IMG/VR virus record: IMGVR_UViG_3300010352_001565
Coordinates: 179,055-222,710 of that record
Reading direction: 5' to 3' (one strand)
Source: a virus
Length of the DNA stretch: 43,656 nucleotides
This document shows positions 1,733 to 42,643 of the stretch, piece by piece. The first letter of the stretch is position 1; the number at the start of each line of letters is the position of its first letter. The translations under genes and the position numbers were made by a program. The notes under the pieces were generated by a model. The model saw only the letters and a program-made list of their open reading frames with translations. It did no database searches and was not told the DNA's origin.

Positions 1733-1738
1733 CGTGAT

Positions 1739-3202: not shown

Positions 3203-3240
3203 AACAATATGAATTTTGAATTTAACCAAAAGGATAAACG

Positions 3241-11646: not shown

Positions 11647-12708
11647 ATGCCTAACAACGGACCCATACCTTCATACGCCAGTGAGAGACTCATTGGACTC
11701 GAGCTCGAGTACGACGCAAAAACCACCAAGCTCAGCTTGCCAACGACGACACCTTCTGGCTGGTCGCGGCAGTCTGACGGCAGCCTGCAGAATGGCGTTG
11801 AGATGGTGCTCAATCCTCCTCTGACGCTGACAGATGCAACTCCAGTGGTCAAAGAGTTCGCTGACGCTTTCAACCGAGCCCGGACAAACACCTTCAGCAG
11901 CGGCGGCTTCCACGTTCATGTTCAGGTTGCGGATTACACCGAGCATGACGCCGGAAATCTCGCTCGCCTCTACCACCATTTTCAGACGCAGATTAACCGG
12001 TTGCTTGGAAAATCTCGCCACAACAACCACTACTGCCCTCCGTTTACGCACTCCGTGACAGATGCCGATCTTTCGTCGAGATTTAATCTCGGCTCGCTTG
12101 CCAGCACGAGAGCCAGCGCCAAGTCTGCCCGCAAATACCAAGTGGTGAACTTCGCAATGATGCGGTGCACTCGCCACAGCGACCGCACGGTGGAATTTCG
12201 CCAAGGAAGCACCACAAAGCGGTTTGAGTGCATCATTGGCTGGGCGGCATTCTGCGTTGCCATGGTTGAAATCGCCAAGAACGACGCCATGACCAGCGCT
12301 TACATCGGTCAGCAAGCGTCGTGGGAAAACTTCGTGCAGATGCTTCGCGACCACGAATCCATGGTTGGTGCCAGCCACATTGCTGACTGGGTGGTTTGGA
12401 GACGCGAATATCTCGAAGAGACACCGAGCGACGAGCTCATCTCAAAAGCAGTTGCCGCTATGGGACGCCGTCCTCGCGGAATCTTTCACATCTCGCGCGC
12501 TCTCGACATCAACTTGCCGCTGAGCGAGCGGACTCTAAACGCCGCCGTTTCTCGCGGTCTGATTGCTAAGATCGGATCGAAATACCAAGCAAAGTTTGTC
12601 TCATTCGCGGGGTCAGATCTTGAGCAGCTTCAACAAGCCGCGGAAGCCAGGGAGGCAGCTATGCCCGCTGACCGCTCAGGCGAGGTTCTACCTGGAGAGG
12701 AACAATAA
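11647..12708 (+). CDS. amidoligase paralog C
   Basis: Carries IGLELEYD, GGFHVHVQV and VEFRQGSTT, the same three-motif architecture as ORFs 359-1354 and 1739-3157. Confidence 0.6.
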   Translation: MPNNGPIPSYASERLIGLELEYDAKTTKLSLPTTTPSGWSRQSDGSLQNGVEMVLNPPLTLTDATPVVKEFADAFNRARTNTFSSGGFHVHVQVADYTEHDAGNLARLYHHFQTQINRLLGKSRHNNHYCPPFTHSVTDADLSSRFNLGSLASTRASAKSARKYQVVNFAMMRCTRHSDRTVEFRQGSTTKRFECIIGWAAFCVAMVEIAKNDAMTSAYIGQQASWENFVQMLRDHESMVGASHIADWVVWRREYLEETPSDELISKAVAAMGRRPRGIFHISRALDINLPLSERTLNAAVSRGLIAKIGSKYQAKFVSFAGSDLEQLQQAAEAREAAMPADRSGEVLPGEEQ

Positions 12709-13067: not shown

Positions 13068-13316
13068 TTATCTCCAGCGCCCGTCAGAATGAGCCGCAAG
13101 ATCGTCGATCCACTGGGCAATCTCAGCGGCGTTCCCGTCTATGCGGTATCGGTTTAGCCACTGCTGGATCAATTCAACCACGTCTGACTGCTCTCTTAGC
13201 TGCATCCAGTTATTCTTCCAGTCAAGGCGTCCGACTTCTTGCTCCACGAACGAGCATGCCAGATCCTCAACCGAGTCCATGGACGCAATCCTTTCAATAA
13301 TGTCACGAGCAGCCAC
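13068..13316 (-). CDS. hypothetical protein (82 aa), a lone minus-strand gene
   Basis: Its composition is protein-like and balanced. The overlapping plus-strand ORF (13052-13300) is S/R/P-rich junk. It fits exactly between the flanking plus-strand genes. Confidence 0.35.
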   Translation of the reverse strand: MAARDIIERIASMDSVEDLACSFVEQEVGRLDWKNNWMQLREQSDVVELIQQWLNRYRIDGNAAEIAQWIDDLAAHSDGRWR

Positions 13317-13331
13317 AATCTACCTACAACT

Positions 13332-13790
13332 ATGAAACTCAGCGATCTTAAAGACGAAAACACATATTACGTCCAAAAGGCGCTGGATGACGGCAAGTTT
13401 CCGTGGGCCAAAGGAAAAGACCTCAAACGACACGGACACAGCCGGAGTCTGCGCCGGCTAAAGTCGGAAGACGAGAAAATTCCAGAATACTACTATCCCG
13501 TGCAGGTTGATGCGTCGGTCATCATCGCCGTCAAGCCATTCAGCAAGGAAGAGCGCGATGAGTTTCGAATGAAGTTTGTTCGCCCGAATTGGGAAACGGT
13601 GCATATGCACCAGACCACCCCGTTCGAACCTGTCTACGAGTCGATTCCAATTCCGAACCGCATGCCGAAAAAGAAGAGGTCAAGCCACTCTGCCAGCGTC
13701 ATCGTTGACGACGAGGAGTTTGACACCCTGGGAGCCATAAGAGCAGGAGCAGCTGTGTTCAAGCAGCTGCTTAAGTCGCACTGTTCTTAA
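13332..13790 (+). CDS. hypothetical basic protein (152 aa; the track ORF 13239-13790 is trimmed to the ATG at 13332)
   Basis: MKLSDLKDENTYY... The trimmed start avoids overlap with the minus-strand gene. Confidence 0.45.
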   Translation: MKLSDLKDENTYYVQKALDDGKFPWAKGKDLKRHGHSRSLRRLKSEDEKIPEYYYPVQVDASVIIAVKPFSKEERDEFRMKFVRPNWETVHMHQTTPFEPVYESIPIPNRMPKKKRSSHSASVIVDDEEFDTLGAIRAGAAVFKQLLKSHCS

Positions 13791-13796
13791 TAGGCA

Positions 13797-13955
13797 TGGA
13801 AGACAAAAATTTTGTACTCGTAAGAGACGGCAAGCGTATTTCTGAAAACCTCACCCAGAGCGACGCCACGGCTAAAGCCAACGAAATCAACAGCCGGCTG
13901 AACGAATCTGCTGGAGAAAAGCCCGTTGAAATCAAATCGGTTGTCAACGGTTAAT
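13797..13955 (+). CDS. small ORF (52 aa) not in the track
   Basis: MEDKNFVLVRDGKRISENLTQSDATAKANEINSRLNESAGEKPVEIKSVVNG. Its TAATG overlaps the start of the next gene, indicating translational coupling. Confidence 0.3.
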
Positions 13956-14694
13956 GCCTACCCAGCAACTTGACTTGGGGCTTCTACCTTCGGAACCGCA
14001 GCCCGGATCTGAAGGTGTTGTCGTCCCCACAGAGCTGATTGCTCCGGAGAACGCTGCGGACACCAACGCTCAGTTTCCTGACCACGTCGTGGATCAGCTT
14101 CTGACGCCGTGCACCGCCATCATCAGAGACACTCTCACAGAGCAAAACGGGGCTCCTAACCTCGAAAACCCACAGGAACCCCCAGAACATCCCCAGGCTG
14201 ACAAGCCTCTCCAGGTGATAGAGCAGGTGGTTGGAGCCATAAAAGATGGCCGAGACCTGTCTGCCATGAAACCGGACGTGCTCCGGTTGATCTCTAACCA
14301 GGAAGACAGAGCTCAGTTGATCTCTAACCTCCTGATGACCCACGACTACACCCGGGTTGCGAAGTACGCCAAGGCGCGAGAAAAGCTCGAAAACACCATC
14401 CTCGAAGCAATCGACCGCGGGCGTCTTACACCCACTCAGACCCTTGCCTTCTTGAAGCTCATTTCTGAGGAAACTGAAGTCATTTCTGGGCGCATTCGTG
14501 GCGGCGCCACGTCAGTCAAGGACCTGATGGCTCTGATAAATCGAGCAGATTACCAGATGCAGATGTCTGAAGGTGACATTCATAAGAAATTCACAGGAAC
14601 GTCGCCGCAAGGCAGAGAGATCATCAGGCGCTTAATTGGAAAGCTGTGCAAAGCGACAGCCTCTGACGCCAGACGCGACGTGGTTAGCGACTAA
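13954..14694 (+). CDS. putative terminase small subunit (assigned by position only)
   Basis: It lies immediately upstream of the large terminase and is coupled to it by a TAATG overlap. I recognise no motif. Confidence 0.3.
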   Translation: MPTQQLDLGLLPSEPQPGSEGVVVPTELIAPENAADTNAQFPDHVVDQLLTPCTAIIRDTLTEQNGAPNLENPQEPPEHPQADKPLQVIEQVVGAIKDGRDLSAMKPDVLRLISNQEDRAQLISNLLMTHDYTRVAKYAKAREKLENTILEAIDRGRLTPTQTLAFLKLISEETEVISGRIRGGATSVKDLMALINRADYQMQMSEGDIHKKFTGTSPQGREIIRRLIGKLCKATASDARRDVVSD

Positions 14695-16727
14695 TGAGTC
14701 CCACTGAGATTGAAAATGTCCTACTGCGGATCCTTGAAGGCGACAACGCTGACGAGCTAATCCGCAGCTTGTCTGAAAAAGAGCAGGGTCTCTTCTACAA
14801 CATTGTCACCGAGATTCGAAACGGTGCAGCACCAGAGCTTCTCGACGACCTGTGGAAAATCGATTACACCCGTCGCCCGCCGTCGATTGAAGAGTTTATC
14901 ACTGATCCGTACTGGCTTGGAAACACCATGGCCGCTACGGAAGAAAATCCCGGTATCTTTCCTGCTTGGAAAGAAGTGTTGCTTCAAGACTTTGATCTCG
15001 AGTCGCGCATCCACAACCTTGTCATTACAGGTTCACTCGGAACTGGAAAATCGTGGGTGAGCAGCGGCATCTTTCTTTACAGGCTGACACTTGCCACGCT
15101 TCTGAGAAACCCGCAGAACTTTCTAGGCTTGTCAGCAGGTTCAACTATCGTCTACATCGTCTTATCATTGAGCAAGGCGGTCGTTCAAGAAACGGTCTTT
15201 GGCGATGTCCAGAACTTCATGGGACACAGCGCCTACTTTCTCGAAGACTGCCATTTCAATCCAGAGCTGAAGTACAGCAATTTCAGAATTCCGCTAGGAA
15301 AAGGGATCATCCTTACGGCCGGTTCAAAAGGACAGCATATCATCGGTCGTAACACGATGGGTGTCTTCCTTGACGAAGGTAACTGGCGCCTTGAAGCAAA
15401 CCCGGACATGAAGGCGTACAAGCTGTACGACGAAGTTCGGACTCGTATTAAAAACCGCTTCCAGAAGGTCGCTGGGTTTCTACCCGCTATATCGATACTG
15501 TCCTCGTCTGCCCGCGATGAGTCGAGCTTTACTGAAAAGGTCATCTCAGACATCAACGCCATCAAGGACCCCAACGCCGAGAAAGTCTACCGCTTCGCAG
15601 TCTATAAGGTCAAACGCCACCTGCTCAAGCTTAAAAATCGCTGGTTCAAGGTTGCGTACGGTATCAAAAATGTTGATCCCGTTGTGCTTAGCGGTTTTTA
15701 CCTCGAAAACGGTACCCCGATAACCAACGATCCTGAGAATCCTGTTGAGGCGCCGCCTGATGGCTGTCAGACTGAGCTCGTTCCTGAGGACTATCTTGAC
15801 GCTTTCAAGCGCAACGCCAAATCAGGTCTGCAGAACGTCTGTGGTATCAGCACTGGAGGAAGCCACCTGCTTCTCTCGTCAACCATCGACGTGCTGAAAT
15901 GTGTTGAGCTCGGAGAGCGCTCAGGCGTGGTTAACCCGGTCCGCGGCAGAATGGCGCTGATTCCTATCTCCGACGAAGACGACCGTGAGATCTGGGACTA
16001 TCTTGACCACAAGTCATTCCTGACTTTGCGCCATAGCCAGGTCATCCCTATCAGGCATCCTTCAGCTACTCGGTTCGCTCACTTGGACTTGGCTACCGCT
16101 ACCAAAGCAGGTCTGGCAATTTGCCATCTTGTGGGCATGCAGAAAGTCGAGGGCCTTATCAAAAACGGCCAGATTTACGACGAGTACCGCCTGATCGTCG
16201 AATTCGACTTCATCCTCACAATCACTGCCGGTCGAACAAAGCCAATCAGCCTTGAAAAGATCCAGAAGTTCTTTTTCTGGCTCCGCGGCGAGTGCGGATA
16301 CCACTTCGGCAAGATAACGGCTGACACCTACCAGTCAGCCATGCCTCTTCAGATGATGTCTTCTAGAGGGTTCGAAACTGACGTGCTGTCCATTGACCGA
16401 AAGAAAGCTCCGTACTACGGGCTGCGGACTGGCATCGAGGAACTTCGCTTGCGCCTGTACCACCAGGGCGAAATGCTCACCGAGTTCGAGAAGCTGGTTG
16501 ACGGCCCAGAAAAAGTTGACCATCCTCCTGAAGGTTCGAAGGATACGACTGACGCGGTCTGCGGCGCATACACCAACGCCATCAACTCCGAGAACATTTC
16601 TGACTCCCAGTCTGGCACAGATCCATCGCTGCACGCTTCTTCGTCAGCCGATAAGCACGAAGAAGTTTCTCCCATATCCATTCCAATTCCGCGTCAGCCA
16701 CGCAAGTCCCAAGTGTTCCAGGCTTGA
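14694..16727 (+). CDS. terL: terminase large subunit (ATPase plus nuclease)
   Basis: Walker A is LVITGSLGTGKSW and Walker B is VFLDEGNW. The C-terminal region is RNaseH-like (HLDLATATKAG, D-rich). Its 677-aa length is typical. Confidence 0.85.
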   Translation: MSPTEIENVLLRILEGDNADELIRSLSEKEQGLFYNIVTEIRNGAAPELLDDLWKIDYTRRPPSIEEFITDPYWLGNTMAATEENPGIFPAWKEVLLQDFDLESRIHNLVITGSLGTGKSWVSSGIFLYRLTLATLLRNPQNFLGLSAGSTIVYIVLSLSKAVVQETVFGDVQNFMGHSAYFLEDCHFNPELKYSNFRIPLGKGIILTAGSKGQHIIGRNTMGVFLDEGNWRLEANPDMKAYKLYDEVRTRIKNRFQKVAGFLPAISILSSSARDESSFTEKVISDINAIKDPNAEKVYRFAVYKVKRHLLKLKNRWFKVAYGIKNVDPVVLSGFYLENGTPITNDPENPVEAPPDGCQTELVPEDYLDAFKRNAKSGLQNVCGISTGGSHLLLSSTIDVLKCVELGERSGVVNPVRGRMALIPISDEDDREIWDYLDHKSFLTLRHSQVIPIRHPSATRFAHLDLATATKAGLAICHLVGMQKVEGLIKNGQIYDEYRLIVEFDFILTITAGRTKPISLEKIQKFFFWLRGECGYHFGKITADTYQSAMPLQMMSSRGFETDVLSIDRKKAPYYGLRTGIEELRLRLYHQGEMLTEFEKLVDGPEKVDHPPEGSKDTTDAVCGAYTNAINSENISDSQSGTDPSLHASSSADKHEEVSPISIPIPRQPRKSQVFQA

Positions 16728-17538: not shown

Positions 17539-17975
17539 GCTACATCCTAGCCAGCAGATACGCAGGAATAACGACCATTCCGGTAAGCCTTCCTCAGCTT
17601 GAGCTGAGACCCGGAGACTCTGCTGTTGTTTCCATGCTTAAGATCGAGCAGAACCAGAAGATGATGCTGAGGTGGCTGAGTTTGAACCTTATCAAGCTTT
17701 GCGGGGTTAACGCTACAAACCCAACTCTTATCAACCCAGGTCTCGGGATAGTCTACGCTGGAGTCTACTCTTCTGGGTACAACTCGACGTATGGTCCGTG
17801 TGGAACTCCAATCGCTCTGGTTTCAGTAAAGTCCACAGGCACCTCAATGATTAACCCGTACCACCCTAGAAACTTTGAGAGTCCTGACACCTACTCAATT
17901 ATCGTGTCGAACAACACGCAGAGCACCACAGTTAACGTCGGAGTTTCAGGATCTATTCTGTACTACTTTTTATGA
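17535..17975 (+). CDS. hypothetical structural protein, paralog 2
   Basis: It is N-terminally similar to ORF 17056-17538. Confidence 0.5.
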   Translation: MSYILASRYAGITTIPVSLPQLELRPGDSAVVSMLKIEQNQKMMLRWLSLNLIKLCGVNATNPTLINPGLGIVYAGVYSSGYNSTYGPCGTPIALVSVKSTGTSMINPYHPRNFESPDTYSIIVSNNTQSTTVNVGVSGSILYYFL

Positions 17976-20900
17976 TACAGTCGGCAAGAGTCATAGCTCA
18001 AGCGGCGAGCATCCTGGCGCAGCAGTCGTCTGAGCCTGGTGTTGTTGCTGTTATCAACGCAGAAAATACCTCTCCGATCGTAATCACGACCGCTGAACCG
18101 ACTGGGCTTGCAACCGGGGACAAGGTCTCAGTTTCTGGAGTGCTTGGAAATCTTGCGGCAAACGTGACAGACTGCACCATCACAGTTCTGAGCTCGACAC
18201 GGTTCAGGCTTAACGGCACCACTGCGAGTGGCGCGTACACTTCTGGAGGGTGGGTTAGCGGCCACACTCTGTGTCCTGCGGCAACAACTGGGGACTTTAA
18301 TCCAACCACTTTTTCAAGGCGAGACAACGAGCTTCAGTACCGCGACCTCGTAGTTGCAGCCCACCTTATGGAGGTGTCAATGCGAGCGTCGACAGTGTGG
18401 TCGTTCGTCGCTCCGCGCATCCTCATACCGTCAGTTCCGTCTCCGAACCTCGACTATAAAACGCAAGATCTTGACGCGTCTCAAGCTGGAAAAGTTCTTC
18501 ACGTTCTGAACAGCTCGTTTCCAAGTGCCGCCGTAGCGACCGACAAGCAGCTTTATTACCGCGATACCATTCTCCTTGAAGCGCTTGCTCGAGCAGGTAA
18601 GGTGTTTGAGCCAGATTTTACGCTTCTTCCTGGAGGACAGCAGATCCCATCTGCAACAATATCCGATGCGTGGTCGCTCGCAGAAGGAGCACCTTCCAAT
18701 AGGAGCGTTTCAGGAGCGCACCAGCTCAACCGCGACTTGTTCAAAGTCCCTGACCAGAATCTTGCTGACCGTGACAACCAGATTGCGTCTGTTGCATCGC
18801 GTCTTATCGCCGTGCTGACAAGCCCGCTTGACTACGCAAACAGGCTATATGTCAAAATAGGAACGCGGGAACCTACTACGTTCGCCATTGTGGAGAATGA
18901 AAGCCGCGATGACACCAGAACGTGGGCTGGAATGCCGCAGTTATCAGCTGGAAGAAATCGACTGATCTACTCAAAGTCTCAGAAGACAATGACGTGGGTC
19001 CCTGAGGATGGGTCGGCGCCCATTGTTGCGCAGGCCGTCCCTCCGACGATGGACGCTAATGGATCCACAACTGCGATGACAGTCCAAAGCTCTGGAGGAT
19101 CCATGGACTTGGTAGCGAGCATCCCGGCGTCCCCGGATGCAGTAACCAGGCTAGATCGCGCGAAGCTTCTCAAATTTAGCGGGGCGTTGGAAATCGACGG
19201 AGTCTGCTACACTGGCGACGACTTTGGAGGTCCTCTTCTAGATGGAAGCAAGTGCCTCTACACCCCGTACAACATCAGCACCGGAGTCGGTTGGGGAGAG
19301 CTTCCAGCAGGAACTTATCGCGTTTCTATTCTTGTGCGACCAGGAAGCATCCTTGAATTTCCAGGAGCAAATCTGACTTCAGGCGCCTCGTACACATTTA
19401 CGCCTCTTATTTCGAGTAGCTCTTCTCGATGGAAGCTTTCCTTTGTCTACTCAAACTCTACCGCAACCTCATGCGAAGCTGGGACGTCTGGGGCTCCACA
19501 GATTCTATCCATTGTTGCTGGAAGTGGAACATCAAACCCTGTTTATTTCGATGGATCGCCGTTGCGCATCAAGCCTCTTAACGGAACTCTTAACATCAGC
19601 AAGGTGATCCTTACAGAAGAAAATTACACCGTAGATCCTCAGTACTCGATTCATGCTGTGCTTACGGATGACATGGGGTCGAACATGGGGTCGTCGCCCG
19701 TGGACATTACCATGTACGGGCGCCGCCAGCGGTACGACGTAGTAACGTTTGATTTTACAACAACGATCGCGTCAAGACACCCTATTTTGTGGCTTATCAC
19801 AGGAGTTCAACCATGCCCACTCGTGCTTAGCGCCATTCACATTCAGGCGGCAAACGCAGTGACTGGAACTCCCGAGACTGGAGGTCACGCCGCTTGGAAG
19901 TACGACTCCCTGATGAAAGCGCTCTCCGACGTCAAGGCATCGTACAGCCAGAAGATAAATTCTCCGATCGGTCAAGAGCACCAGCTTCCAGGGACTGACT
20001 ATTTCACAAACAGGTTTACACTGTCTTTCAACAAGTCGATCATACTGGCGGGATCTAACATCTCGTCGACCTCAGAGCCAGGAGAGCCAAATCATGGACC
20101 GCTCGGGGCGTATGGAGGAAAGTCGCTTTGGTGGGCGTGGACTGCTACGCACGACTGCACCGTCACGATCAACTACGACGGCAGTCTGATGGACGACGAA
20201 GGAGTGTGCTGGGCGTCTGTCGCGATATACACGGGAGAGTCGCTGCAGTCACTGCAAAGGGTGACAACGTCTTCTCCAGGACAAAATGCAATTTCATTCC
20301 AGGCAGTGAAAGGAACAGCGTACTCTATTGCAGTTGATGGAATTAACGGAGCATCCGGGTCGATCGTACTTGCCGTATCGCTAAGCACCGCCGCAAATAC
20401 CCTTCAGGAAAATGCGGTCCCGGTTTCAAACTTCTCCGTCCGTCAGCTTGTCAGCGAGACTCAGCTCTCGGTGCCGAACTACGCTTGGTACTTGTTCACC
20501 TCTCCGGTTAGCGGCTATGTGAAAGTGTACGTTGATGGAAGCGAAAATCAAGACAGCAGAAATCTTAAAGTCACTCAGAACGGAACAGACGTAGCCGCCG
20601 TTGTAACCACGTCAAGATCTATAGTGTTTAACGCTGAGTCTGGAGTTGACTACCTCATAAAGATAGGCGGCGATGGAAAGACCTGCCTTAGCATCTCCCC
20701 TTATTACTCGAACCCAGATGGAACGTGGGATAGGAACAGCATCGAGCGCTGGATGTCTGACATTGAGACGCTGCACGCGCGCATCAAGACAGCGTTCAGG
20801 CAGTCGCGCCCAGGCGACATCGGAAAACCGTGCCTGCTTCCCCGCGGTCTGTCGGTCACAGCTAACGGGTCTGTTCACGGAGAATACGGCTCTACTTGGA

Positions 20901-21028
20901 GCACTCCGACGATTGTGGCATTGCAGCCGTGGATGATTGCGATTGGAGCCTACGTGGCAGACCGCGAGTTCTGGCCAGCAGAAAGCACGATCGAGGTTTC
21001 GTCGATTACACAGGCTGGAATGCAGTAG
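17972..21028 (+). CDS. large S/T/G-rich virion protein, probably a tail fibre or receptor-binding protein
   Basis: It is 1018 aa, beta-rich and of low-charge composition. It is the last gene of a tightly coupled operon 16743-21028. I recognise no enzymatic motif. Confidence 0.4.
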   Translation: MIQSARVIAQAASILAQQSSEPGVVAVINAENTSPIVITTAEPTGLATGDKVSVSGVLGNLAANVTDCTITVLSSTRFRLNGTTASGAYTSGGWVSGHTLCPAATTGDFNPTTFSRRDNELQYRDLVVAAHLMEVSMRASTVWSFVAPRILIPSVPSPNLDYKTQDLDASQAGKVLHVLNSSFPSAAVATDKQLYYRDTILLEALARAGKVFEPDFTLLPGGQQIPSATISDAWSLAEGAPSNRSVSGAHQLNRDLFKVPDQNLADRDNQIASVASRLIAVLTSPLDYANRLYVKIGTREPTTFAIVENESRDDTRTWAGMPQLSAGRNRLIYSKSQKTMTWVPEDGSAPIVAQAVPPTMDANGSTTAMTVQSSGGSMDLVASIPASPDAVTRLDRAKLLKFSGALEIDGVCYTGDDFGGPLLDGSKCLYTPYNISTGVGWGELPAGTYRVSILVRPGSILEFPGANLTSGASYTFTPLISSSSSRWKLSFVYSNSTATSCEAGTSGAPQILSIVAGSGTSNPVYFDGSPLRIKPLNGTLNISKVILTEENYTVDPQYSIHAVLTDDMGSNMGSSPVDITMYGRRQRYDVVTFDFTTTIASRHPILWLITGVQPCPLVLSAIHIQAANAVTGTPETGGHAAWKYDSLMKALSDVKASYSQKINSPIGQEHQLPGTDYFTNRFTLSFNKSIILAGSNISSTSEPGEPNHGPLGAYGGKSLWWAWTATHDCTVTINYDGSLMDDEGVCWASVAIYTGESLQSLQRVTTSSPGQNAISFQAVKGTAYSIAVDGINGASGSIVLAVSLSTAANTLQENAVPVSNFSVRQLVSETQLSVPNYAWYLFTSPVSGYVKVYVDGSENQDSRNLKVTQNGTDVAAVVTTSRSIVFNAESGVDYLIKIGGDGKTCLSISPYYSNPDGTWDRNSIERWMSDIETLHARIKTAFRQSRPGDIGKPCLLPRGLSVTANGSVHGEYGSTWSTPTIVALQPWMIAIGAYVADREFWPAESTIEVSSITQAGMQ

Positions 21029-28271: not shown

Positions 28272-28301
28272 CGCGCCTGAATGGTAACCCGTTCAGGCGC
28301 G
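28272..28301 (+). promoter_or_regulatory. stable hairpin (10-bp stem CGCGCCTGAA / TTCAGGCGCG, 10-nt loop) between genes
   Basis: There is no T-tract. It sequesters the first in-frame ATG (28281) of the downstream ORF. Confidence 0.35.
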
Positions 28302-28316
28302 TGTAGTTATGGCACG

Positions 28317-29432
28317 ATGTACAAACCTTCACTAGTTGAACAGCTTACCGGAGTACGAATCCCGACTCCGAAGAGCCTGATCGAGTCATTCTGGCGCGAT
28401 GGACAGGCTATCGATATTTTCGTCCCGTTGTATTACACCGCCAATCTTAAAGAGAATGACGGCATGATGACGACGCTCGAGTACATCTCGGCGATTGACG
28501 AGAAAACCGGGTCAACCCTCAAGCAAGATGTCGCTCAGCATTGGGCTGGCATGCAAGAAGATGAGGGCGAAGACGAAGAAGGAGACGAGGATCCTTCTTC
28601 GCGAGGAGACGGACGCGTCGACCGGCATGACTGGCGCTACGAAGGCGAGGACATGACTGACGAGCAGTGGGACGACGCCTTCAACAGCTACGTTAACGAG
28701 AATGGCGGATGGCACCGCTGGTTGGAAGGTTGGAGAGAAAAGAAATCGCCTGCAGCTGACTTTGAAGACGAGAGCGTTATTGAAGGAGTGCTTGAAGCTG
28801 CTCAGGACGACTGGAATGAATCCAACATGGCGCAGTACGCTGAAGATGTTCCCGGTCTGAAGAGCATCCAATGTGTGGACTACGGCCGCGTTGATAAGAA
28901 GGAAAAAGGCGCCATCGGCATCCTGCTGCGCGCTGAGTTCGACACCACCCCCGATGACGCCACTACCAAAGCGCTGGTTGGATGGGTGTCTGGTCAGATG
29001 AGCGACGGTTGGGGTGAGGGCTTCGAGCAGAACGAGTTCGGAAGCCGGCGTGGTGGCATGGGAATCGTTCCTGACGACGAAATCTACGAGTACTGTTCCA
29101 CTTCTGGGCGAGCGGACTATGACTCCAGCTACACAGCAAAATCCACATTCGGCACTGGCGAGAATGGAGTCCGCAACGATTATTCAGTTCCAAGAATGCG
29201 CGACCGCAAGACCATTCCGAGCGGCGTGAAGCAGCTTCCAGGCAAAATGGCGCAGGGAGCCAGAGACATCGGCCGAAAACTTGGTGGTCGCTTTATGAAC
29301 TCTGCGCCGGTTACGCACACAGCGCGAGTTGCAAAGGAGATTCAGCGCCGAGCGACAAACATGGGAAAAGCCATGCGTGGTGAGTCTGAATCTAAAGCGT
29401 CAAAGCTTGTCAGTAAGCTGGTCGAAGAATAA
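28317..29432 (+). CDS. highly acidic, Trp-rich protein (371 aa); candidate DNA mimic
   Basis: Long D/E runs (EDEGEDEEGDEDP, EDMTDEQWDD, EAAQDDWNES). The track ORF 28281-29432 would start inside the hairpin loop, so the ATG at 28317 is preferred. Confidence 0.5.
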   Translation: MYKPSLVEQLTGVRIPTPKSLIESFWRDGQAIDIFVPLYYTANLKENDGMMTTLEYISAIDEKTGSTLKQDVAQHWAGMQEDEGEDEEGDEDPSSRGDGRVDRHDWRYEGEDMTDEQWDDAFNSYVNENGGWHRWLEGWREKKSPAADFEDESVIEGVLEAAQDDWNESNMAQYAEDVPGLKSIQCVDYGRVDKKEKGAIGILLRAEFDTTPDDATTKALVGWVSGQMSDGWGEGFEQNEFGSRRGGMGIVPDDEIYEYCSTSGRADYDSSYTAKSTFGTGENGVRNDYSVPRMRDRKTIPSGVKQLPGKMAQGARDIGRKLGGRFMNSAPVTHTARVAKEIQRRATNMGKAMRGESESKASKLVSKLVEE

Positions 29433-35952: not shown

Positions 35953-36205
35953 TAGGAGGTTCGGCTTTGGCTTTCACCGGAGGTTGCTCGGCTTTCACCG
36001 CGGTAACCTCATTCACCAGCTCTTGGTAGTCTGCGATAATGGCTTGGGCTTCCTGAAGCATCGCCGCAGTCATGATCATCACATTGGCTCTAGCATTAAA
36101 TTGTGCGGCGCGGCGGCCAAGAGTTAGTTTATCCACATTCTTTAGAACATGTCGATTAAATTTTCGCTGTGCTACACGTCGTGCAGAGCGCACCTGATCA
36201 AGCAA
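35933..36205 (-). CDS. possible small minus-strand protein in the gap upstream of the GT2 gene
   Basis: The plus strand has a 195-bp ORF-free gap here. The minus ORF has a coiled-coil-like sequence. Its low-complexity end overlaps the stop of the NTase gene. Confidence 0.25.
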   Translation of the reverse strand: MLDQVRSARRVAQRKFNRHVLKNVDKLTLGRRAAQFNARANVMIMTAAMLQEAQAIIADYQELVNEVTAVKAEQPPVKAKAEPPTTPSAP

Positions 36206-37747
36206 ACCGTTAACCTCTGGAAATCCAGGGCAAAAGATCCCAGCCAGGTCGAGGTCATCGTTGCTGTCGATGCCACTGATACAGCCGGCATCGAGGTCTG
36301 CGAGCAGATGAGAAAGAGCAACGGAGACAACGACACGTTCGACTTCGTTATCCAGGGGTCAGAGCCGTTCAATTGCGTCAAGGGCTGGAACCTTGCAGCT
36401 GAATACTGCCGCGGCGACGTCCTGATCGCGATCTCTGATGACTTCTCACCTCCTGGACACTGGGACTCTCAGCTCATCGGAAGCTTAAGACCTGGATGGT
36501 GGTCTGAAGAGTGCGTGGTCCACGTAAACGATGGCTATGTGAAGACCATATGCACTCTTCCGATTATCACCAGAAAGCGCTATGACAAGTTTGGGTACAT
36601 CTACCACCCAAGATACCAGTCGATGTTCTGCGACACTGAGCTTACAGAGCGCGCATACCAAGACGGAGTGGTTATCGAAGCCATGCACCTCCTGTTTGAA
36701 CACGAGCACCCTGACTGTGGCAAGCGGTCCGGAGACGCTTTTGACGCCCACCACGCTTCAAAACAGAGGTGGAACGAGGGAGAGGCGATTTTCAACGAGA
36801 GGAAGAAACTCGGTTTCCCAAGTGACTCTGAGCTTGAGCAGCGCAACTCGTTTGTGGCATATTTCCAAGTCACGAAAGATGACTTCTGCTTGCTTGAAGT
36901 TTGCTTGAGGCTTGTCAGCGAGGGAGTAAAGTCGTTCCGGTTCTGCATCCCAAGCGAGTACTGGTCTGGAAAGGTGGTAAGCCAAGAAGAAATCGCGCAG
37001 GTCGAAGACGTTCATAAGCGCCTGGTCGCTGACGGACTCAACTCAAAGCTGAAGATCTTTGACGTCAAGAGTCACCGCACAGGAAAGGGACTGCTGGTAG
37101 ACGTTGAGGCCGGTGTCCGTAATGATTCTCTGGAGTGGATCCGCAGCGACGGCTTTAAGCACATCCTCGTGGTTGATGGGGACGAGCTATGGCGCACTGG
37201 GACGCTCACGCTAATCCAGCGCTGCATTAACAGCGTTCAACCGGATTCCATCAGCTGCAGGTGCATTCCAACCATCGGCCTTCCAGGACTTCCGATCGAA
37301 GGGGCTCAGGATCTCGTTGGGGTGTACATCGGAAACGGAAAAATCTTCGATAGCTGCAGGACTCCTCGCGGGAACAAGAAAGCTCTGATTGACTCGCATA
37401 ACGTCATCCATTTTACAGCCACGCGGAAAACGATGGATGAGATCATCAAGAAGCACCGAGAATCAGGTCACTACGACGACCCAAACTACGACTTCGAGGG
37501 ATGGATCTCCAGAGTGCTTCCAAACGTGCATCCAGGGATGCGCAACGCCCACATGTACAGGCCTTACCAAATCTGGCCGTTGATCAGAGCATGGACTGAC
37601 GATGAACTCGCAGACATCCCTGAATCAGTTAAAAAGTACCTTTCGCTCGCTAAGCTTGAACCTGTAAAGACTGCCAAGCAGCCAAAACGCCGCATGATAC
37701 CGTTTGCGGAGTCCCTGTCGCGCCCCAGCAACTACCGGCACGTCTAA
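36149..37747 (+). CDS. GT-A fold (GT2-like) glycosyltransferase with a C-terminal extension
   Basis: N-terminal SIKFSLCYTS ... EVIVAVDATD ... KGWNLAAEYCRGDVLIAISDDF matches the GT2 NxGxAxARNxGxxxAxGxYIxFLDxDD block. It is 532 aa. A second DGDE lies in the C-terminal half. Confidence 0.55.
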   Translation: MSIKFSLCYTSCRAHLIKQTVNLWKSRAKDPSQVEVIVAVDATDTAGIEVCEQMRKSNGDNDTFDFVIQGSEPFNCVKGWNLAAEYCRGDVLIAISDDFSPPGHWDSQLIGSLRPGWWSEECVVHVNDGYVKTICTLPIITRKRYDKFGYIYHPRYQSMFCDTELTERAYQDGVVIEAMHLLFEHEHPDCGKRSGDAFDAHHASKQRWNEGEAIFNERKKLGFPSDSELEQRNSFVAYFQVTKDDFCLLEVCLRLVSEGVKSFRFCIPSEYWSGKVVSQEEIAQVEDVHKRLVADGLNSKLKIFDVKSHRTGKGLLVDVEAGVRNDSLEWIRSDGFKHILVVDGDELWRTGTLTLIQRCINSVQPDSISCRCIPTIGLPGLPIEGAQDLVGVYIGNGKIFDSCRTPRGNKKALIDSHNVIHFTATRKTMDEIIKKHRESGHYDDPNYDFEGWISRVLPNVHPGMRNAHMYRPYQIWPLIRAWTDDELADIPESVKKYLSLAKLEPVKTAKQPKRRMIPFAESLSRPSNYRHV

Positions 37748-37992
37748 TGGACACCGACCACCTCATTTGGGAAGAGAAGAAGATCCTCGACGACTTAAGA
37801 GACTTAAGGCCAGGAGAGATCAAGCTATGGACGCTTATAAACAAAGCCTCGGCTGATCTTCCAAACCTCGGTCAAACCGCTCGTGAGAATCGCCAGGTGG
37901 TGACGTCGCTAGTTAGCCGACTCATGCGCGAGAAAAAGATCAAGCGAAACAGAAAAACAAACATGGTTCGCATTAGCGAGGTCTTCGCATGA
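37747..37992 (+). CDS. small basic protein (81 aa), possible winged-helix regulator
   Basis: A TAATG overlap couples it to the GT2 gene. The helix-turn-like segment is KLWTLINKASADLPNLGQTARENRQVVTSLVSRL. Confidence 0.35.
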   Translation: MDTDHLIWEEKKILDDLRDLRPGEIKLWTLINKASADLPNLGQTARENRQVVTSLVSRLMREKKIKRNRKTNMVRISEVFA

Positions 37993-38005
37993 AGTTCTTT
38001 TAGCA

Positions 38006-39262
38006 ATGAGCGACACCAAAAAACGCACCCCTCACAATTCTCAGTGGTCAATCGTAACTCTTAAAGAGCCAGTCCTGTGGTCCAGGACGGACAGCGAAGT
38101 GTGGATGCTGAATCCAACAGTTCGATACGTCATGAACTCAGATCAGCTCGAGCACCTCAACCACCTTGTTGACACTTGCTCAGACCTGCGAAATTCCGCG
38201 TTCCACAAGCCTCTTAACGGCCTTGCGAATCTCGCTCAGAAAAAGATTCTTGTCGAGCGCTATCGCGGACGCGGAGTCGGAGACCTGCTATTCATGACAG
38301 GTCCTCTGAATTACATCCGGCACATTTCAGGACACAGCGCGAAAATAGAGTTTTATGCTCTCGCTGAGAGGTCGCAAGTTCTCCAGCTGCATCCCGCTCT
38401 CGCTCACAAGAGCACGCTTGCTGGACCGCTGATCTACGACACCATCAACCAGTATGACTACCAGTGGTTCTCGGACTGCGTAACTGAATACGACGAAGAG
38501 AAGGATCAGCTCAACGTGTACGACGCGCTGTTCAAGCAAATCGGCATCGATCCGCAGAGCGTCGGAGCAGAGTTCAAGCGACCAAGCATTCACCTTGACG
38601 AACAGGACTTCGCGAATCTTGACACTTTCTACTACTTTGTATATGGAGATCGGCACATCGACTTGCGCAAGACAGGCTACTACGTGGTGGCTCCTCTGAG
38701 CAATGGGACGCTGAGATCGCTGCCGTACGCCTCCTGGCTAGAAATCATCTCTGAGCTGTCGAAGAAGCGCCCTGTAGTTGTGATCGGCCAGATGTCTGAA
38801 AGAGTTCCTCCGATGGACATGACTGGTGGAGAATTCTACTCCCAGGTTAACCAGCTTGCTCCGAACGTTATCAATGCCATGGGAAACACCCAGCTTCGCG
38901 TCGTGTCAGCCATTATCGCGAGAGCAACTGGCGTGGTGTGCCTGGACTCTGGCCCACTCTATATTAGCCAAGCTTTGCGCACGCCTGCCATCTCAATCTG
39001 GGGACCGCATCATCCTGGCGTTCGCATCGGATACGACAAGGACTACATGGAGCTTGCTATCTGGAATTCGAGTGCATGCAGCTACGCACCGTGCTTCGCG
39101 TACCACGGGTTTCCGACTCAAAAATGCCCACAAGGAGATTCTCAGCGCATTTGCGAAGTTCTAAAGGTCTCGCCCGTCGAAAGCGTGATAAATAAGCTTG
39201 AGAAAATCGAATCTGGAAATCCGTCCGTCACATCTTTCAAGGCCGCTAAACCCACCAAGTAA
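38006..39262 (+). CDS. GT9-family (ADP-heptose:LPS heptosyltransferase-like, GT-B fold) glycosyltransferase
   Basis: GVGDLLFMTGPL is the GT9 N-terminal motif. NAMGNTQLRVVSAIIARATGVVCLDSGPLYISQALRTPAISIWGPHHP matches the RfaF/WaaC C-terminal donor-binding block. Confidence 0.6.
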   Translation: MSDTKKRTPHNSQWSIVTLKEPVLWSRTDSEVWMLNPTVRYVMNSDQLEHLNHLVDTCSDLRNSAFHKPLNGLANLAQKKILVERYRGRGVGDLLFMTGPLNYIRHISGHSAKIEFYALAERSQVLQLHPALAHKSTLAGPLIYDTINQYDYQWFSDCVTEYDEEKDQLNVYDALFKQIGIDPQSVGAEFKRPSIHLDEQDFANLDTFYYFVYGDRHIDLRKTGYYVVAPLSNGTLRSLPYASWLEIISELSKKRPVVVIGQMSERVPPMDMTGGEFYSQVNQLAPNVINAMGNTQLRVVSAIIARATGVVCLDSGPLYISQALRTPAISIWGPHHPGVRIGYDKDYMELAIWNSSACSYAPCFAYHGFPTQKCPQGDSQRICEVLKVSPVESVINKLEKIESGNPSVTSFKAAKPTK

Positions 39263-39263: not shown

Positions 39264-39722
39264 ATGCCTGAGCGCGAACTACCACAGCTTCCTCCCATTG
39301 ACATGGGAGATGACTTTAAATTGGATCTGTCATACTATTTGACCCAAAGCTACGACGACATAGGGCAGGCTTCAAGCGAGCTCCCTGCGGTCATCGAGTG
39401 GGTCAACATGAAGCTCCAGGAGATGGTTGAATCTCGGCTGATCGCGAAACAGCGCATAAAGGAGCTTGAAGCTGAAGCCTACTTCGATCTTAAAGGAGGA
39501 AGGTTTGCTGAGAATTACTCAGACAAGATGACAGAGACCTCCTTGGCGATGGCTGTAGCGCTTGACGAAAAGGTCAAATCAGCTCACCGAAAGCATGCTG
39601 TTCTGGCTGGGTGGGTTGAAAGACTGTCAAATTTACAAGGTTCTCTCGTGGCGAAGCTTGACCTTACTCGGTCATCCGAAGCCACTCGCCGCCAACTGAT
39701 AAGCAAACACGATTCTGAATAG
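39264..39722 (+). CDS. hypothetical protein (152 aa) ending in TAG, in frame with the SSB gene
   Basis: The ATG at 39264 follows the GT9 stop. The track ORF 39198-39722 overlaps the GT9 gene. Confidence 0.45.
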   Translation: MPERELPQLPPIDMGDDFKLDLSYYLTQSYDDIGQASSELPAVIEWVNMKLQEMVESRLIAKQRIKELEAEAYFDLKGGRFAENYSDKMTETSLAMAVALDEKVKSAHRKHAVLAGWVERLSNLQGSLVAKLDLTRSSEATRRQLISKHDSE

Positions 39723-39731: not shown

Positions 39732-41243
39732 ATGAGTAATCAAGAAAAAAGTCCAGCATATCTGTCTCTCCTCGAGGAAGAGACAAGTTACATGCAAGCT
39801 AACACCTCTAACAAGGTGAAGCGCATCAAGATCCCTCTCGGACACGCGTGGCTCATGCGGTTCCTTCCGGTTGAACTGGGCCCGCGCAAATCGTTTTTTG
39901 CTCGCGTCGCAAATCACTGGGTTAATCGCCGTCCCATTCCTTGCCGACGCCACACTCATCCCGACTTTGGCGGAGACCCTCACGCTCCCTGCGCCATGTG
40001 CGATGCTTCCGAAGAGCTTAATGGCCACGGATCTCAGCGCATCTCGTCGATTGGATACGGCGCGCGGTCCATCAGCCAGTGGGTTTTGTTCGCACTGGTC
40101 TTCGAAAAAGATGACGGCGAGCGCAGCGACGTTATTAAAGCTCCTGACATGTGGGACGCTCATGAGTTTCAGATCACGAAAAACTCGTTTGAGGATCTCC
40201 TGAGCATCTTCAGAAAGGGAACGCGCCGCTGCCCGCTGAGCATCCTTGACCTCGTTCAAGGTCAGGACATTTGGGTTACGCAGAAGAAAACTGGCATACG
40301 CTTCGCTCCTGAAATGCCGAGCGCGATAACCAACAACCAAGACAAGATGCAGTCGATCGTCGACAAAATCTGGTCCGGAATTAAGTTCCAAGAGCCAAAG
40401 TTCCTTAGCTCTCGCGAACTTGAAGACGCCGCTGACAAGCTGCGAGACTCAGCTGAAGACGCTGGTCGTGGCCGTGGAGACGACCGTGATCGTGGTCGCC
40501 GAGGTGAAGACGAAGTTGAAGACTACGGGCGCGGACGCCGAGACGACAGAGGTCGCGGGCGCGACGATGACCGCGGAAGTCGCGGGCGTGACGACGATCG
40601 AAGCAGGGGCGGATACGACTCTGAAGACGATGCTCCTCGCGGGCGTCGCGGCGATGACGCTCCTCGCAGCAGGCGCGGAGAAGATGACGATGCTCCTCGC
40701 GGGCGCCGTGGAGATGATGAAGATGCTCCTCGCGGACGACGCGAAGAAGAGCCAAGAGGCCGGCACGACGACGAAGATGACGCTCCTCGCGGGAGGCGCG
40801 AGCGAGACGCCGATTCCGGACGAGATGACCGAGGGCGCGAAGATGACGACCGTGGGTCAAGAGGACGCAGTGACGATCGAGGACGCGGCGAAGACGACAA
40901 CGAAGAACGCTCTGCTCCGTCTGCTTCTCGCCGAAGCATGACTCCTCCGTCGGTGTCTCAGACTCCGCGCCAGGCACCTCCGTCTGCTTCAAAAACGCTT
41001 CCTCCTCCACCTGCGCGCGGCGGGACTAACGGAGCGCAAGAGCAGTCGATTGATGATGACGAAGCCATTCCAGAGGAACGCAGAGATCCCGCTCCTCCAG
41101 AGTCTATGCCAGAGCCCGAGCCTGAAGCTCAAGCTCCTGCAGACGCTCCTCCGCCCGTGGCTGCAGCTGGCGCTACGCCGTCAGCTCCCCGCTTGTCGCA
41201 GCGCATCCGCTCTGGAATAAACAGCCTTGACACCAGGAAATAA
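39732..41243 (+). CDS. T4 gp32-like zinc-binding ssDNA-binding protein with a long RG/D-rich disordered C-terminal tail
   Basis: RFLP at residues 43-46. Zinc ligands C71, H74/H76, C87 and C90 (CRRHTHPDFGGDPHAPCAMC); C87 and C90 are exactly as in gp32. The tail (residues 245-392) contains six DDAPRGRRG(D/E)D repeats. Confidence 0.65.
   Translation: MSNQEKSPAYLSLLEEETSYMQANTSNKVKRIKIPLGHAWLMRFLPVELGPRKSFFARVANHWVNRRPIPCRRHTHPDFGGDPHAPCAMCDASEELNGHGSQRISSIGYGARSISQWVLFALVFEKDDGERSDVIKAPDMWDAHEFQITKNSFEDLLSIFRKGTRRCPLSILDLVQGQDIWVTQKKTGIRFAPEMPSAITNNQDKMQSIVDKIWSGIKFQEPKFLSSRELEDAADKLRDSAEDAGRGRGDDRDRGRRGEDEVEDYGRGRRDDRGRGRDDDRGSRGRDDDRSRGGYDSEDDAPRGRRGDDAPRSRRGEDDDAPRGRRGDDEDAPRGRREEEPRGRHDDEDDAPRGRRERDADSGRDDRGREDDDRGSRGRSDDRGRGEDDNEERSAPSASRRSMTPPSVSQTPRQAPPSASKTLPPPPARGGTNGAQEQSIDDDEAIPEERRDPAPPESMPEPEPEAQAPADAPPPVAAAGATPSAPRLSQRIRSGINSLDTRK
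40464..40908 (+). repeat. imperfect tandem ~33-bp repeats in coding sequence (gacgatgctcctcgcgggcgccgtggagatgat) encoding the SSB tail
   Basis: All six frames are open here, which explains the spurious overlapping ORFs 40405-41010(-), 40523-40939(-) and 40420-40941(+). Confidence 0.55.
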
Positions 41244-41245: not shown

Positions 41246-42643
41246 ATGGCCAAAGCTGCGCCTGAAAAGCCAACGAAGCCAACCAAGAAACTCAAGGCTG
41301 GCTTCTCTAACAGCGACCTTAAAGATCGAATCGTAGCCAGCGTCAAGAGGATTGCTCCTCGCAATAAAGACGCTGGATCTATTGAGGTTTGCCGCACTAA
41401 CAAGGAAATCTTGTCAAGGGTTCGCTACGTCCTGACCACTGGCATAAAGCCATTCGACGATGCTGTCGGCGGTTTTCCATTTGGACGCGTAGTCGAGCTC
41501 TACGGGTTGGAGTCTTGCGGTAAGACTGCAGTCTGCATGCGCTCTGCAGTCAGAGCTCAGAAGCGTGAGATCTACGAGCGCATCAAAGTCGAGGACACCG
41601 AAAAGATCGAGTATGTCTTGCGCAAGATCCCGAATGACGCTGACGTGACAGTGCTCTACATTGACAACGAGCAGTCCCTTGAAGATGACGAGAAGATTGT
41701 CATTGAGGACGTTGAAATCGATGCCGTGCTTGCTCGCTGCGACACCGTGGAGCTTCTGTTCAAGACGATTGACAAGACTCTCGACGAGATCTCAGCGTTC
41801 GAGAAACAGACTGGACGCCAGCAGTTCGTGGTAGTCATCGTAGACACCATCGCAGGAACATCTTCGAAAGAAGAAATGACGAAGGACTGGGGAAAAGACG
41901 ACTACTCTCGCCAGCCAAAGCAGCTCCGCGAAGCGTTCCGCAGAATGACGCGCAAGATCAACCGCCAGAACGTCTGCATGATCTGCACCAACCAGGTGTC
42001 GGACTCTTACAAGGCCGCCCAGGCTGGAAAGAAGGGTAACAAGTCGACGCTTCCACGAGACCAGGACTTCTCAACGTTCGGTGGAAGGGCACTGAAGTTC
42101 TACGCGACTGTCCGCATCTTCATGTTCAAGATTCCTGACGTCAAGTATACGCTTGTCAAAGGAGCCCAGTTTGCCGCTGGTTTCTTGGTGGGTTTCTTCA
42201 CATCAAAAAACAGGCAGGTAAAACCGCTGCGCGAAGGTCGCATGGCGCTGCTATTCGATCGCGGGCTTGATAACACATTCAGCATCCTTGAGAGCTTGAT
42301 CTACTACGGATTCGCGGTGTATGACAAGGAAAATGGAGGTTACGCGTTCAGGTTTAACGCTTGGAAGATTCCAATGACCACCTTCGGTGGGTCTAACGCG
42401 ATTGACCTTGAAGAGGGAGATGCTGCTGAGGAGGAAAGCCGATCAGAGCGCAAGAAGAATCCGCGCATCGAATCTCGAGCTGAATGGCCCGCGTTTTACG
42501 AGGCCCACAAAGCAGACTTCGACGCCATGTGGGCTGCGGCAAAGAATTACATCTTCGCCACTGAGGGCATTGGCGGTTTCGTTGCTTCTCGCGAAGATGC
42601 AGAAGATGACACCGACGCTGACAGCACTGTAGTTGAAGATTGA
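41246..42643 (+). CDS. RecA/UvsX-like recombinase
   Basis: LTTGIKPFDDAVGGFPFGRVVELYGLESCGKT is the RecA P-loop signature. VVVIVDTIAGT is Walker-B-like. The C-terminal tail is acidic. Confidence 0.7.
   Translation: MAKAAPEKPTKPTKKLKAGFSNSDLKDRIVASVKRIAPRNKDAGSIEVCRTNKEILSRVRYVLTTGIKPFDDAVGGFPFGRVVELYGLESCGKTAVCMRSAVRAQKREIYERIKVEDTEKIEYVLRKIPNDADVTVLYIDNEQSLEDDEKIVIEDVEIDAVLARCDTVELLFKTIDKTLDEISAFEKQTGRQQFVVVIVDTIAGTSSKEEMTKDWGKDDYSRQPKQLREAFRRMTRKINRQNVCMICTNQVSDSYKAAQAGKKGNKSTLPRDQDFSTFGGRALKFYATVRIFMFKIPDVKYTLVKGAQFAAGFLVGFFTSKNRQVKPLREGRMALLFDRGLDNTFSILESLIYYGFAVYDKENGGYAFRFNAWKIPMTTFGGSNAIDLEEGDAAEEESRSERKKNPRIESRAEWPAFYEAHKADFDAMWAAAKNYIFATEGIGGFVASREDAEDDTDADSTVVED

Follow-up and report, generated by a model that had tools for sequence, protein, structure and literature searches.

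Gene product 32 (gp32) of bacteriophage T4 is the textbook phage SSB (a protein that binds single-stranded DNA) and is used as a reagent in isothermal amplification. Its tail is purely acidic, the acidic domain comprising approximately 48 amino acids (aa), and its N-terminus is basic (KRKST-type). In bacterial SSB, as in Escherichia coli, a conserved homotetrameric oligonucleotide-binding (OB) core is followed by a variable low-complexity linker, rich in Gly, Gln and Pro, and by a highly conserved acidic-hydrophobic motif at the free end; the acidic peptide of E. coli SSB is DDDIPF. Here, an SSB gene with a much longer tail was analysed, located at 39732 to 41243 of a 43,656-nucleotide stretch of viral DNA (IMG/VR record IMGVR_UViG_3300010352_001565, positions 179,055 to 222,710; the whole stretch is referred to as the window). 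Three earlier reports bear on such tails. The disordered linker of E. coli SSB drives cooperativity and phase separation (10.1101/797431). T4 gp32 and UvsX are condensate scaffolds in recombinase polymerase amplification mixtures containing polyethylene glycol (PMC11951158). Arginine-type mixed-charge domains (R-MCDs), rich in RD and RE, occur in eukaryotic nuclear-speckle proteins; RD repeats condense in a length- and Arg-dependent manner, and excess negative charge abolishes condensation (Greig et al., 10.1101/771592).

The window gene probably encodes, in our assessment with moderate confidence, a phage replication/recombination SSB made up of a gp32-fold core, a linker rich in RG and Asp (the RG/D block) and a conserved end that docks partner proteins. 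Its features are as follows.

39732 to 41243, + strand: SSB coding sequence, an intact open reading frame (ORF) of 503 aa; gp32-fold SSB plus a 260-aa tail (disorder predicted from composition).
39732 to 40460, + strand: globular core with the gp32 fold, aa 1-243.
39915 to 40001, + strand: putative zinc-binding segment with H62, C71, C87 and C90 (HWVNRRPIPCRRHTHPDFGGDPHAPCAMC), aligned to T4 gp32 and conserved in the family.
40461 to 40910, + strand: Arg/Asp/Gly/Glu mixed-charge low-complexity segment, aa 244-393, from composition and charge statistics.
40476 to 40613, + strand: N-proximal DDRG(S)RGR-type units, aa 249-294, with EDEVEDYG in between; repeat family D3 copies at 40479, 40542 and 40569.
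40506 to 40529, + strand: EDEVEDYG, aa 259-266, a probable variant of an acidic-hydrophobic-aromatic motif that is single-copy in family tails.
40620 to 40808, + strand: six [DE]n(A/E)PRGRR units, aa 297-359, an imperfect tandem repeat of approximately 33 bp.
40818 to 40898, + strand: C-proximal DDRG(S)RGR-type units, aa 363-389; repeat family D3 copies at 40824 and 40872.
40911 to 41018, + strand: Ser/Pro-rich stretch ending in P..R...PPPPAR, aa 394-429 (motif at 40962 to 41018, aa 411-429).
41046 to 41099, + strand: conserved acidic motif SIDDDEAIPEERRDPAPP, aa 439-456.
41142 to 41159, + strand: DAPPPV motif, aa 471-476.
41190 to 41240, + strand: C-terminal basic motif RLSQRIRSGINSLDTRK, amphipathic and helix-like, aa 487-503.

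In the proposed arrangement, the zinc-containing core would bind single-stranded DNA and would be followed by a disordered tail organised like that of bacterial SSB. The RG/D block was read as a linker because the protein is laid out as an SSB in which a core, a linker and a docking module follow one another. This linker would be a near-neutral arginine polyampholyte derived from local DNA duplication of two short units, with selection acting on its length, disorder and charge balance and far less on its exact sequence. It would present EDEVEDYG, PPPPAR, the acidic motif, DAPPPV and the terminal basic amphipathic helix. By analogy with the SSBs described above, these motifs would most likely dock replisome or recombination partners (the neighbouring UvsX-like recombinase, for example) and/or fold back onto the core of the SSB itself, in the manner of T4 gp32's acidic C-terminal domain. 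The alternating Arg and Asp/Glu blocks may add weak multivalent SSB-SSB cohesion (cooperativity or condensation).

The core was modelled with AlphaFold2 using 97 homologues as the alignment, which gave a mean predicted local distance difference test score (pLDDT) of 95.9 and a predicted template modelling score of 0.86; with the single sequence and no homologues, the pLDDT was 35. An OB fold with gp32 topology was present in the predicted structure. Foldseek comparison of this model with the PDB returned six matches only at E ≤ 0.001, all of them RB69 or T4 gp32 (2a1k, 1gpc, 8gme, 2atq), and structure matches in BFVD comprised 53 viral gp32-fold proteins at E ≤ 0.001, several of which are named ssDNA-binding protein. 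Alignment of the family profile to the single T4 gp32 sequence with hhalign (E 1.1e-5, 156 columns) paired RFLP with RFLP, and H62, C71, C87 and C90 with H64, C77, C87 and C90 of T4 gp32, which we take to be the zinc ligands in the structure of the gp32 core (Shamoo et al. 1995). These four residues were at least 90% conserved in a 98-sequence family alignment and invariant in the 16 closest members. Because of the Foldseek, BFVD and hhalign results and the conserved His-Cys3 tetrad, the term "gp32-like", applied to this gene in a first-pass annotation, is correct for the fold and the metal site, although no curated family model matches. The protein is thus modelled as a remote branch of the gp32 fold with a putative metal site, approximately 15% identical to T4/RB69 gp32 (1GPC, 2A1K, 8GME).

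Searches by sequence were less productive than those by structure. No PHROG match to the core was found at E ≤ 0.1, and the PDB sequence search was empty at E ≤ 10. When the family profile was compared with PDB sequences, gp32 was not retrieved, and the only proteins matched were of low complexity and aligned through tail columns. Neither tblastn nor megablast detected a relative in 50,697 GenBank phage records, even at E = 10. With the single SSB sequence, no match was obtained in a word-indexed search of 5.8 billion proteins or in scans of IMG/VR and GTDB genomes. Among the BFVD matches, cultured phages contribute gp32-fold proteins with lengths of up to 400-517 aa, one of them being A0A127AW92 of Bacillus phage SP-15 (477 aa).

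A public gene call places the start at Met21 (39792), with a GAGGAAGAG-like stretch upstream of Met21. The start at 39732 is the likelier one, because residues 8-20 (PAYLSLLEEETSY) are kept in homologues and are part of a confidently modelled N-terminal helix; a helix is predicted at residues 8-25. The N-terminus of the SSB (MSNQEKSPAYLSLLEEETSY) is acidic (SLLEEETSY), and the basic KRKST-type cooperativity motif, present in T4 gp32 as MFKRKSTAEL, is absent from it. In contrast to T4 gp32, the window protein has its basic amphipathic motif at the C-terminus. No promoter-like or terminator-like signal within the gene exceeded shuffle expectation.

Conservation of tail columns was calculated across 136 homologues. 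The PPPPAR motif (P 0.92, R 0.68, P 0.88, A 0.60) has the family form P..R...PPPA(R). In the acidic motif, the acidic columns were conserved at 0.78-0.93, followed by hydrophobic 0.82, P 0.62, E/D 0.92, D 0.98, A 0.78, P 0.88 and P 0.70; its family form is [VI]-D-E-E-D-N-[VIL]-P-E-E-x-x-D-P-A-P-P. DAPPPV (family form [DE]-A-P-P-P-V) gave P 0.98, P 0.59, P 0.52 and V or another hydrophobic residue 0.65. The terminal motif, L..R-L-R-x-R-I-x-x-L...R, has hydrophobic columns at 0.82, 0.98, 0.96 and 0.59 with a spacing of i/i+4/i+4/i+3, and basic positions conserved at 0.4-0.64; it is predicted to form a helix. A further motif type, represented by EDD[VIL]P[YM]D, DDLDYG, DDQ[VI]PGAE[VI]P and DDGDLGPQ, was found exactly once in 51 of the 136 tails (1.1 expected from shuffles). 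EDEVEDYG has one residue more than the regular expression allows and did not match it. It was taken as a probable variant because the homologue P0002 has DDEVADYG and two others, P0019 and P0035, have DDLDYG.

The first-pass annotation had proposed the RG/D block as an interaction platform. This was not borne out by the family comparison: no other part of the tail varies as much as the block, and the conserved motifs lie outside it, in the last approximately 95 aa, together with the short acidic-aromatic EDEVEDYG at aa 259-266. The resulting order of conserved core, variable low-complexity linker and highly conserved acidic-hydrophobic motif (D-E-A-I-P-E-E in the window protein) resembles that of bacterial SSB. 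It differs from bacterial SSB in that the core has the gp32 fold, the linker is a strong Arg/Asp polyampholyte, and PPPPAR, DAPPPV and the basic helix are without bacterial counterpart.

The block itself (aa 244-393, 150 aa) contains 44 R, 39 D, 27 G, 15 E and no K, and is without L, I, F, M and W. Its fraction of charged residues is 0.65 and its net charge per residue −0.07. Autocorrelation of charge shows maxima at lags of 11 and 21, and the charge blocks are 2-5 residues long. An RG/D-rich tail of approximately 150 aa had been annotated at 40464-40908 (aa 245-393); the composition was confirmed, but the tail runs a further 110 aa, rich in Ser, Pro and Ala, to the stop codon. At 260 aa, it is indeed expanded relative to the acidic domain of T4 gp32. 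It contains 56 Arg (20%) and 21% basic residues with a net charge per residue of −0.05, and is near-neutral where the T4 gp32 tail is purely acidic. Three ORFs overlapping the repeat, at 40405-41010 (− strand), 40420-40941 (+ strand, +1 frame) and 40523-40939 (− strand), were treated as artefacts of low-complexity sequence that is free of stop codons.

High mixed charge, near-neutral net charge and an excess of Arg over Lys, the hallmarks of an R-MCD, were all present in the block, as were the alternation of short charge blocks and the junction to a predicted nucleic-acid-binding domain that are seen in nuclear-speckle proteins. It is unlike those R-MCDs in belonging to a phage protein without homology to them, in having Gly and Pro within its basic blocks and in being slightly net negative. 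The annotated RG/RGG-acidic character held as regards the RG content (23 RG dipeptides) and the mixed charge. It did not extend to an RGG or glycine-arginine-rich box, as clustered RGG triplets were absent (one RGG in 150 aa) and aromatics were few (two Tyr, no Phe). The term arginine-type mixed-charge polyampholyte describes the block better than classical RGG box does.

Binding of nucleic acids is a property of RG-rich regions, and in T4 gp32 DNA binding is gated by the acidic tail. The Arg blocks might accordingly be conceived as an auxiliary RG-box-like nucleic-acid-binding module gated by the acidic blocks. Instead of recruiting proteins, the tail would then directly modulate affinity for single-stranded DNA or RNA, for example in a translational autoregulation like that of T4 gp32. 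The number of RG dipeptides and of Arg residues suits such a module; the single RGG and the two aromatics do not, every basic block is flanked by an acidic block of equal or larger size, the net charge is negative and many homologues are without Arg-rich tails. We regard it as very improbable.

At the DNA level, the central array comprises APR cores at aa 301, 310, 321, 332 and 351 and a degenerate EPR at aa 341, with unit starts between aa 297 and 347. Six 11-aa copies of DDAPRGRRG[DE]D had been annotated. There are six units, but their spacing is 9-11 aa, the literal pattern matches twice only, and they occupy just the central approximately 63 aa, flanked on both sides by a second unit, DDRG(S)RGR (repeat family D3, five copies). 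The annotated imperfect repeat of approximately 33 bp was recovered by Tandem Repeats Finder at 40626-40750 (period 33, 4.0 copies, 73% matches, score 124). The 14-mer GATGCTCCTCGCGG occurred five times at ≤2 mismatches, every one within the array (0.64 expected). The codons GCT CCT CGC are used in 5/5 APR units, and neighbouring synonymous sites differ. From the codon frequencies of the window (0.31 x 0.32 x 0.51 for each unit), the chance of four further units matching the codons of the first is approximately 6e-6. The APR units were taken to be true, moderately old DNA duplicates, because identical codons are improbable under independent origin.

Variation in copy number, which the first-pass annotation had suggested comparing among relatives, was found between lineages and not between close assemblies. 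Three other assemblies of this phage, namely a JGI contig and two ENA contigs that stem from different samples, carry a gene identical in DNA to that of the window across the array; a single mismatch was counted in 1,973 nt, and it is outside the gene. The array is thus not hypervariable on this scale, and a misassembly artefact was rejected on the evidence of the same three contigs. A difference in APR copy number appears only between lineages at approximately 57% core identity: P0002, the nearest relative with a core identity of 55-58%, has two APR units against six, no DDRGRGR arrays and a proximal region shorter by approximately 40 aa. Its fraction charged is 0.35, compared with 0.61 in the window protein.

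To collect the family, aa 1-243 were searched exhaustively with HMMER against 1.84 billion cluster representatives; of the 187 homologues found, 90 had E ≤ 1e-30. The family therefore comprises at least 187 clusters at 50% identity; the members that were traced are all metagenomic, and 16/16 member records checked are unnamed or labelled "hypothetical protein". Nearly all of the best 150 of the 187 representatives are 400-560 aa long with the core at residues 1-245. A low-complexity, poorly conserved linker follows the predicted DNA-binding core in this family. Tail length ranges from 154 to 326 aa (median 236). The variable proximal region spans 73-223 aa, with a fraction charged of 0.17-0.61 and 3-23% Arg; some tails are Ala/Pro-rich with few charges. 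Net charge per residue in this region lies between −0.12 and +0.02 in the central 80% of members, and Arg exceeds Lys approximately six-fold in family tails (medians 12% and 2%). The phylogenetic signal in charge content is weak (core distance against charge-content difference, Mantel r 0.067). Frameshifts in relatives, a check proposed by the first-pass annotation, were not seen: the reading frame is kept through the low-complexity part into the C-terminal motifs in all of the approximately 136 full-length homologues inspected, which indicates that the tail is translated and under selection.

Several observations weigh against an SSB with a passive linker and a docking end. The core has no Pfam match at E ≤ 1, the Pfam gp32 model included. 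The conserved acidic motif is internal, ending 47 residues before the C-terminus, whereas that of bacterial SSB is at the free tip; a conserved acidic-hydrophobic peptide is absent from the extreme C-terminus, which is formed by the basic amphipathic motif. Tail disorder is predicted from composition, its only basis. The coupling of positive and negative fractions in the variable region (Pearson 0.79, p 1e-30, slope 1.18) was computed across members regardless of kinship. Finally, the unit [DE][DE][AE]PR[GS]RR occurred 54 times against 3.8 expected by shuffling, in 26 of 139 tails, and is found five to six times in each of four members (P0012, P0014, P0129, P0151) whose cores are 27-41% identical to that of the window protein. 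This recurrence in distant members suggests that the unit may be a selected multivalent motif and not a passive spacer. The unit is missing from closer relatives of each repeat-bearing member (P0002, P0083), so that its distribution reflects either repeated independent expansion of a short peptide or repeated loss.

A selected multivalent unit would fit an alternative, that of the first-pass annotation, in which the RG/D block is itself functional: Arg-Asp/Glu contacts would assemble SSB into condensates or highly cooperative complexes, with or without single-stranded DNA and the UvsX-like recombinase, and repeat number would set valency. We consider this unlikely, though several properties of the block speak for it, namely its high and nearly balanced charge, its 44 Arg and no Lys, its charge period of approximately 11 residues and the recurrence of the APRGRR unit. 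Family-wide, the predominance of Arg over Lys and the kept charge balance point the same way, as do the variable regions with a fraction charged of at least 0.5 in 38 of 98 members, spread over 12 of 19 deep clusters. The literature analogies introduced above are also in keeping with it (10.1101/771592, 10.1101/797431, PMC11951158), and phase separation, as raised in the first-pass annotation, is reasonable as an analogy. Against these stand the weakly charged Ala/Pro-rich tails, with a fraction charged down to 0.17 and, in the nearest relative, a value well below that of the window protein; since such tails carry few charges, high mixed charge is not required for the function of the family. 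Charge segregation in the block is modest (kappa approximately 0.17, compared with 0.125 ± 0.035 in shuffles, 9% of which reach the block value), and the slight net negative charge is of the sign that disfavoured condensation in 10.1101/771592. Within the linker-and-docking arrangement, a smaller contribution of the block to cohesion or condensation may nevertheless be made, as suggested by the Arg-over-Lys bias, the kept charge balance and the recurrence of APRGRR in distant members.

A bolder version holds that this large unnamed family of gp32-fold SSBs, with its arginine-based mixed-charge tail, recurrent multivalent [DE]nAPRGRR units and conserved C-terminal docking module, is the scaffold of a condensate-like replication/recombination compartment whose valency is set by repeat number. 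We think this a long shot; if true, bacterial viruses would have in this scaffold a counterpart to the mixed-charge-domain condensates of eukaryotes.

The block could alternatively have arisen, all but neutrally in terms of selection, as replication slipped or recombined unequally in a stretch rich in purines and GC. It would have no specific role and would be tolerated because the space between the core and the C-terminal motifs can be filled by any disordered, hydrophilic sequence. That the repeats are true DNA duplicates would follow from such an origin, as would the lower unit number and shorter proximal region of P0002, the fast turnover of composition with weak phylogenetic signal, and a local GC content of 0.59 at the repeat against approximately 0.52-0.55 elsewhere. 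Strong coupling of positive and negative charge and the bias for Arg over Lys are, however, unexpected under neutrality. The frame is unbroken in the homologues, the units have diverged in DNA (73% matches) yet encode the same peptide, and the array is identical in the window and three other assemblies rather than hypervariable. Taken together, these make a purely passive origin and persistence improbable.

For the SSB with a core, linker and docking end, neither the fold nor the zinc site is new, and disordered SSB tails as a general idea and low-complexity regions of mixed charge are likewise known. What is new is their combination in a sizeable metagenomic family, and a conserved tail architecture five times longer than the tail of gp32. 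This family of at least 187 clusters keeps the gp32 fold and zinc site, and the short acidic tail is replaced by a 150-330-aa region, predicted to be disordered, with conserved putative docking motifs. A function is thereby assigned to a family without Pfam or PHROG match. If the tail works as proposed, its members offer a series, provided by nature, in which linker length, charge density and repeat valency differ, for studying how SSB tails control cooperativity, recruitment and condensation.

The SSB gene is part of a conserved module in an uncultured phage lineage, comprising a small ORF, the SSB and a recombinase. The two neighbouring genes are as follows.

39264 to 39722, + strand: 152-aa ORF of no assigned family, just upstream of the SSB gene; syntenic in the related contigs L001 and L003-L006.
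41246 to 42643, + strand: RecA/UvsX-like recombinase (Pfam RecA 3e-22, PHROG UvsX-like 1.2e-38) with an acidic C-terminal tail, REDAEDDTDADSTVVED.

The recombinase start codon lies 2 nt past the SSB stop codon. The order small ORF-SSB-recombinase is fully kept in L001-L003 and L006; in the short contigs L004 and L005, the small ORF and SSB gene are kept and the downstream gene is cut by the contig end. In L003 and L006, the adjacency of SSB and recombinase genes is held at 34-37% core identity. Acidic recombinase C-termini were also seen in the L003 and L006 orthologues. The recombinase's best phage match is in Leptolyngbya phage Lbo-JY46, where no SSB-like neighbour is present.

The small upstream ORF was located at 9490-9969 in L003, 2423-2890 in L004, 2812-3276 in L005 and 407-991 in L006. 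Five relatives share 37 invariant columns, including KLDL.RS.EATRR. It gave no Pfam or PHROG match, and a UvsY assignment was rejected for want of hhalign similarity to T4 UvsY. As a guess, it may encode a mediator of recombination or a partner of the SSB.

The window is a phage replication region that also encodes a DnaB-like helicase, a family A polymerase (8174-11365), an NAD-dependent ligase and a superfamily 2-type (DEAD/ResIII) helicase, together with amidoligase, glutamine amidotransferase and glycosyltransferase genes. The family A polymerase and DnaB-type helicase set this phage apart from the T4 gp32 system. In GenBank phages, nothing exceeds approximately 25-29% identity to the window polymerase and recombinase. 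The same SSB gene is found on an ENA metagenome contig of 82.8 kb, which also carries T4 gp13-like and Peptidase_S77 genes, and the relative at 37% core identity is a 110-kb contig (L003) with Gp23 and Peptidase_S77. The contigs analysed reach approximately 146 kb and belong to an uncultured phage lineage with a T4-type capsid and a family A polymerase.

Further observations were made on other genes of the window. The DnaB-like helicase (5771-7189, − strand) has a charged C-terminal tail of low hydrophobicity near 5771-5900 (…KPRRKGKNSRTEKKDPGEDVPEELK, then stop), the end of which is similar to DEAIPEE of the SSB. A D[VI]PEE motif common to the SSB and helicase tails was considered and rejected, as the L003 helicase tail, although also basic and then acidic, is without VPEE. 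L003 also carries, at 13236-15335 and two genes downstream of the recombinase, a 699-aa gene with intein-splicing (faint match) and LAGLIDADG domains; no such gene is present at the matching position in the window.

Amidoligase_2 is represented by three paralogues, of which one has a WGR domain; these and a gene resembling class-II glutamine amidotransferases are located at 359-4278 and 11647-12708 (+ strand). A glutamine amidotransferase/amidoligase pair also flanks the SSB module in L003. Within the amidoligase-like ORF at 1739-3157, a second coding tandem repeat was found at 2819-2873 (+ strand; 18-nt unit CTCCAGCTCCTGCCGCAA, 2.6 copies, 96% matches), near a region of very low hydrophobicity in the protein. 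Directly upstream of the SSB module, at 36149-39262 (+ strand), are GT2-like (532 aa) and GT9 heptosyltransferase-like (418 aa) genes, the latter syntenic in L004 and L005. The 1018-aa ORF at 17972-21028 (+ strand) matched the FCCH domain of ubiquitin-activating enzyme E1 at a borderline level (E 9e-7; score of 29.3 bits against a cut-off of 29.5). The ORF at 28281-29432 (+ strand), of no assigned function, contains a strongly acidic low-complexity stretch, EDEGEDEEGDEDPSSRGDGRVDRHDWRYEGEDMTDEQWDD, at aa ~93-132.

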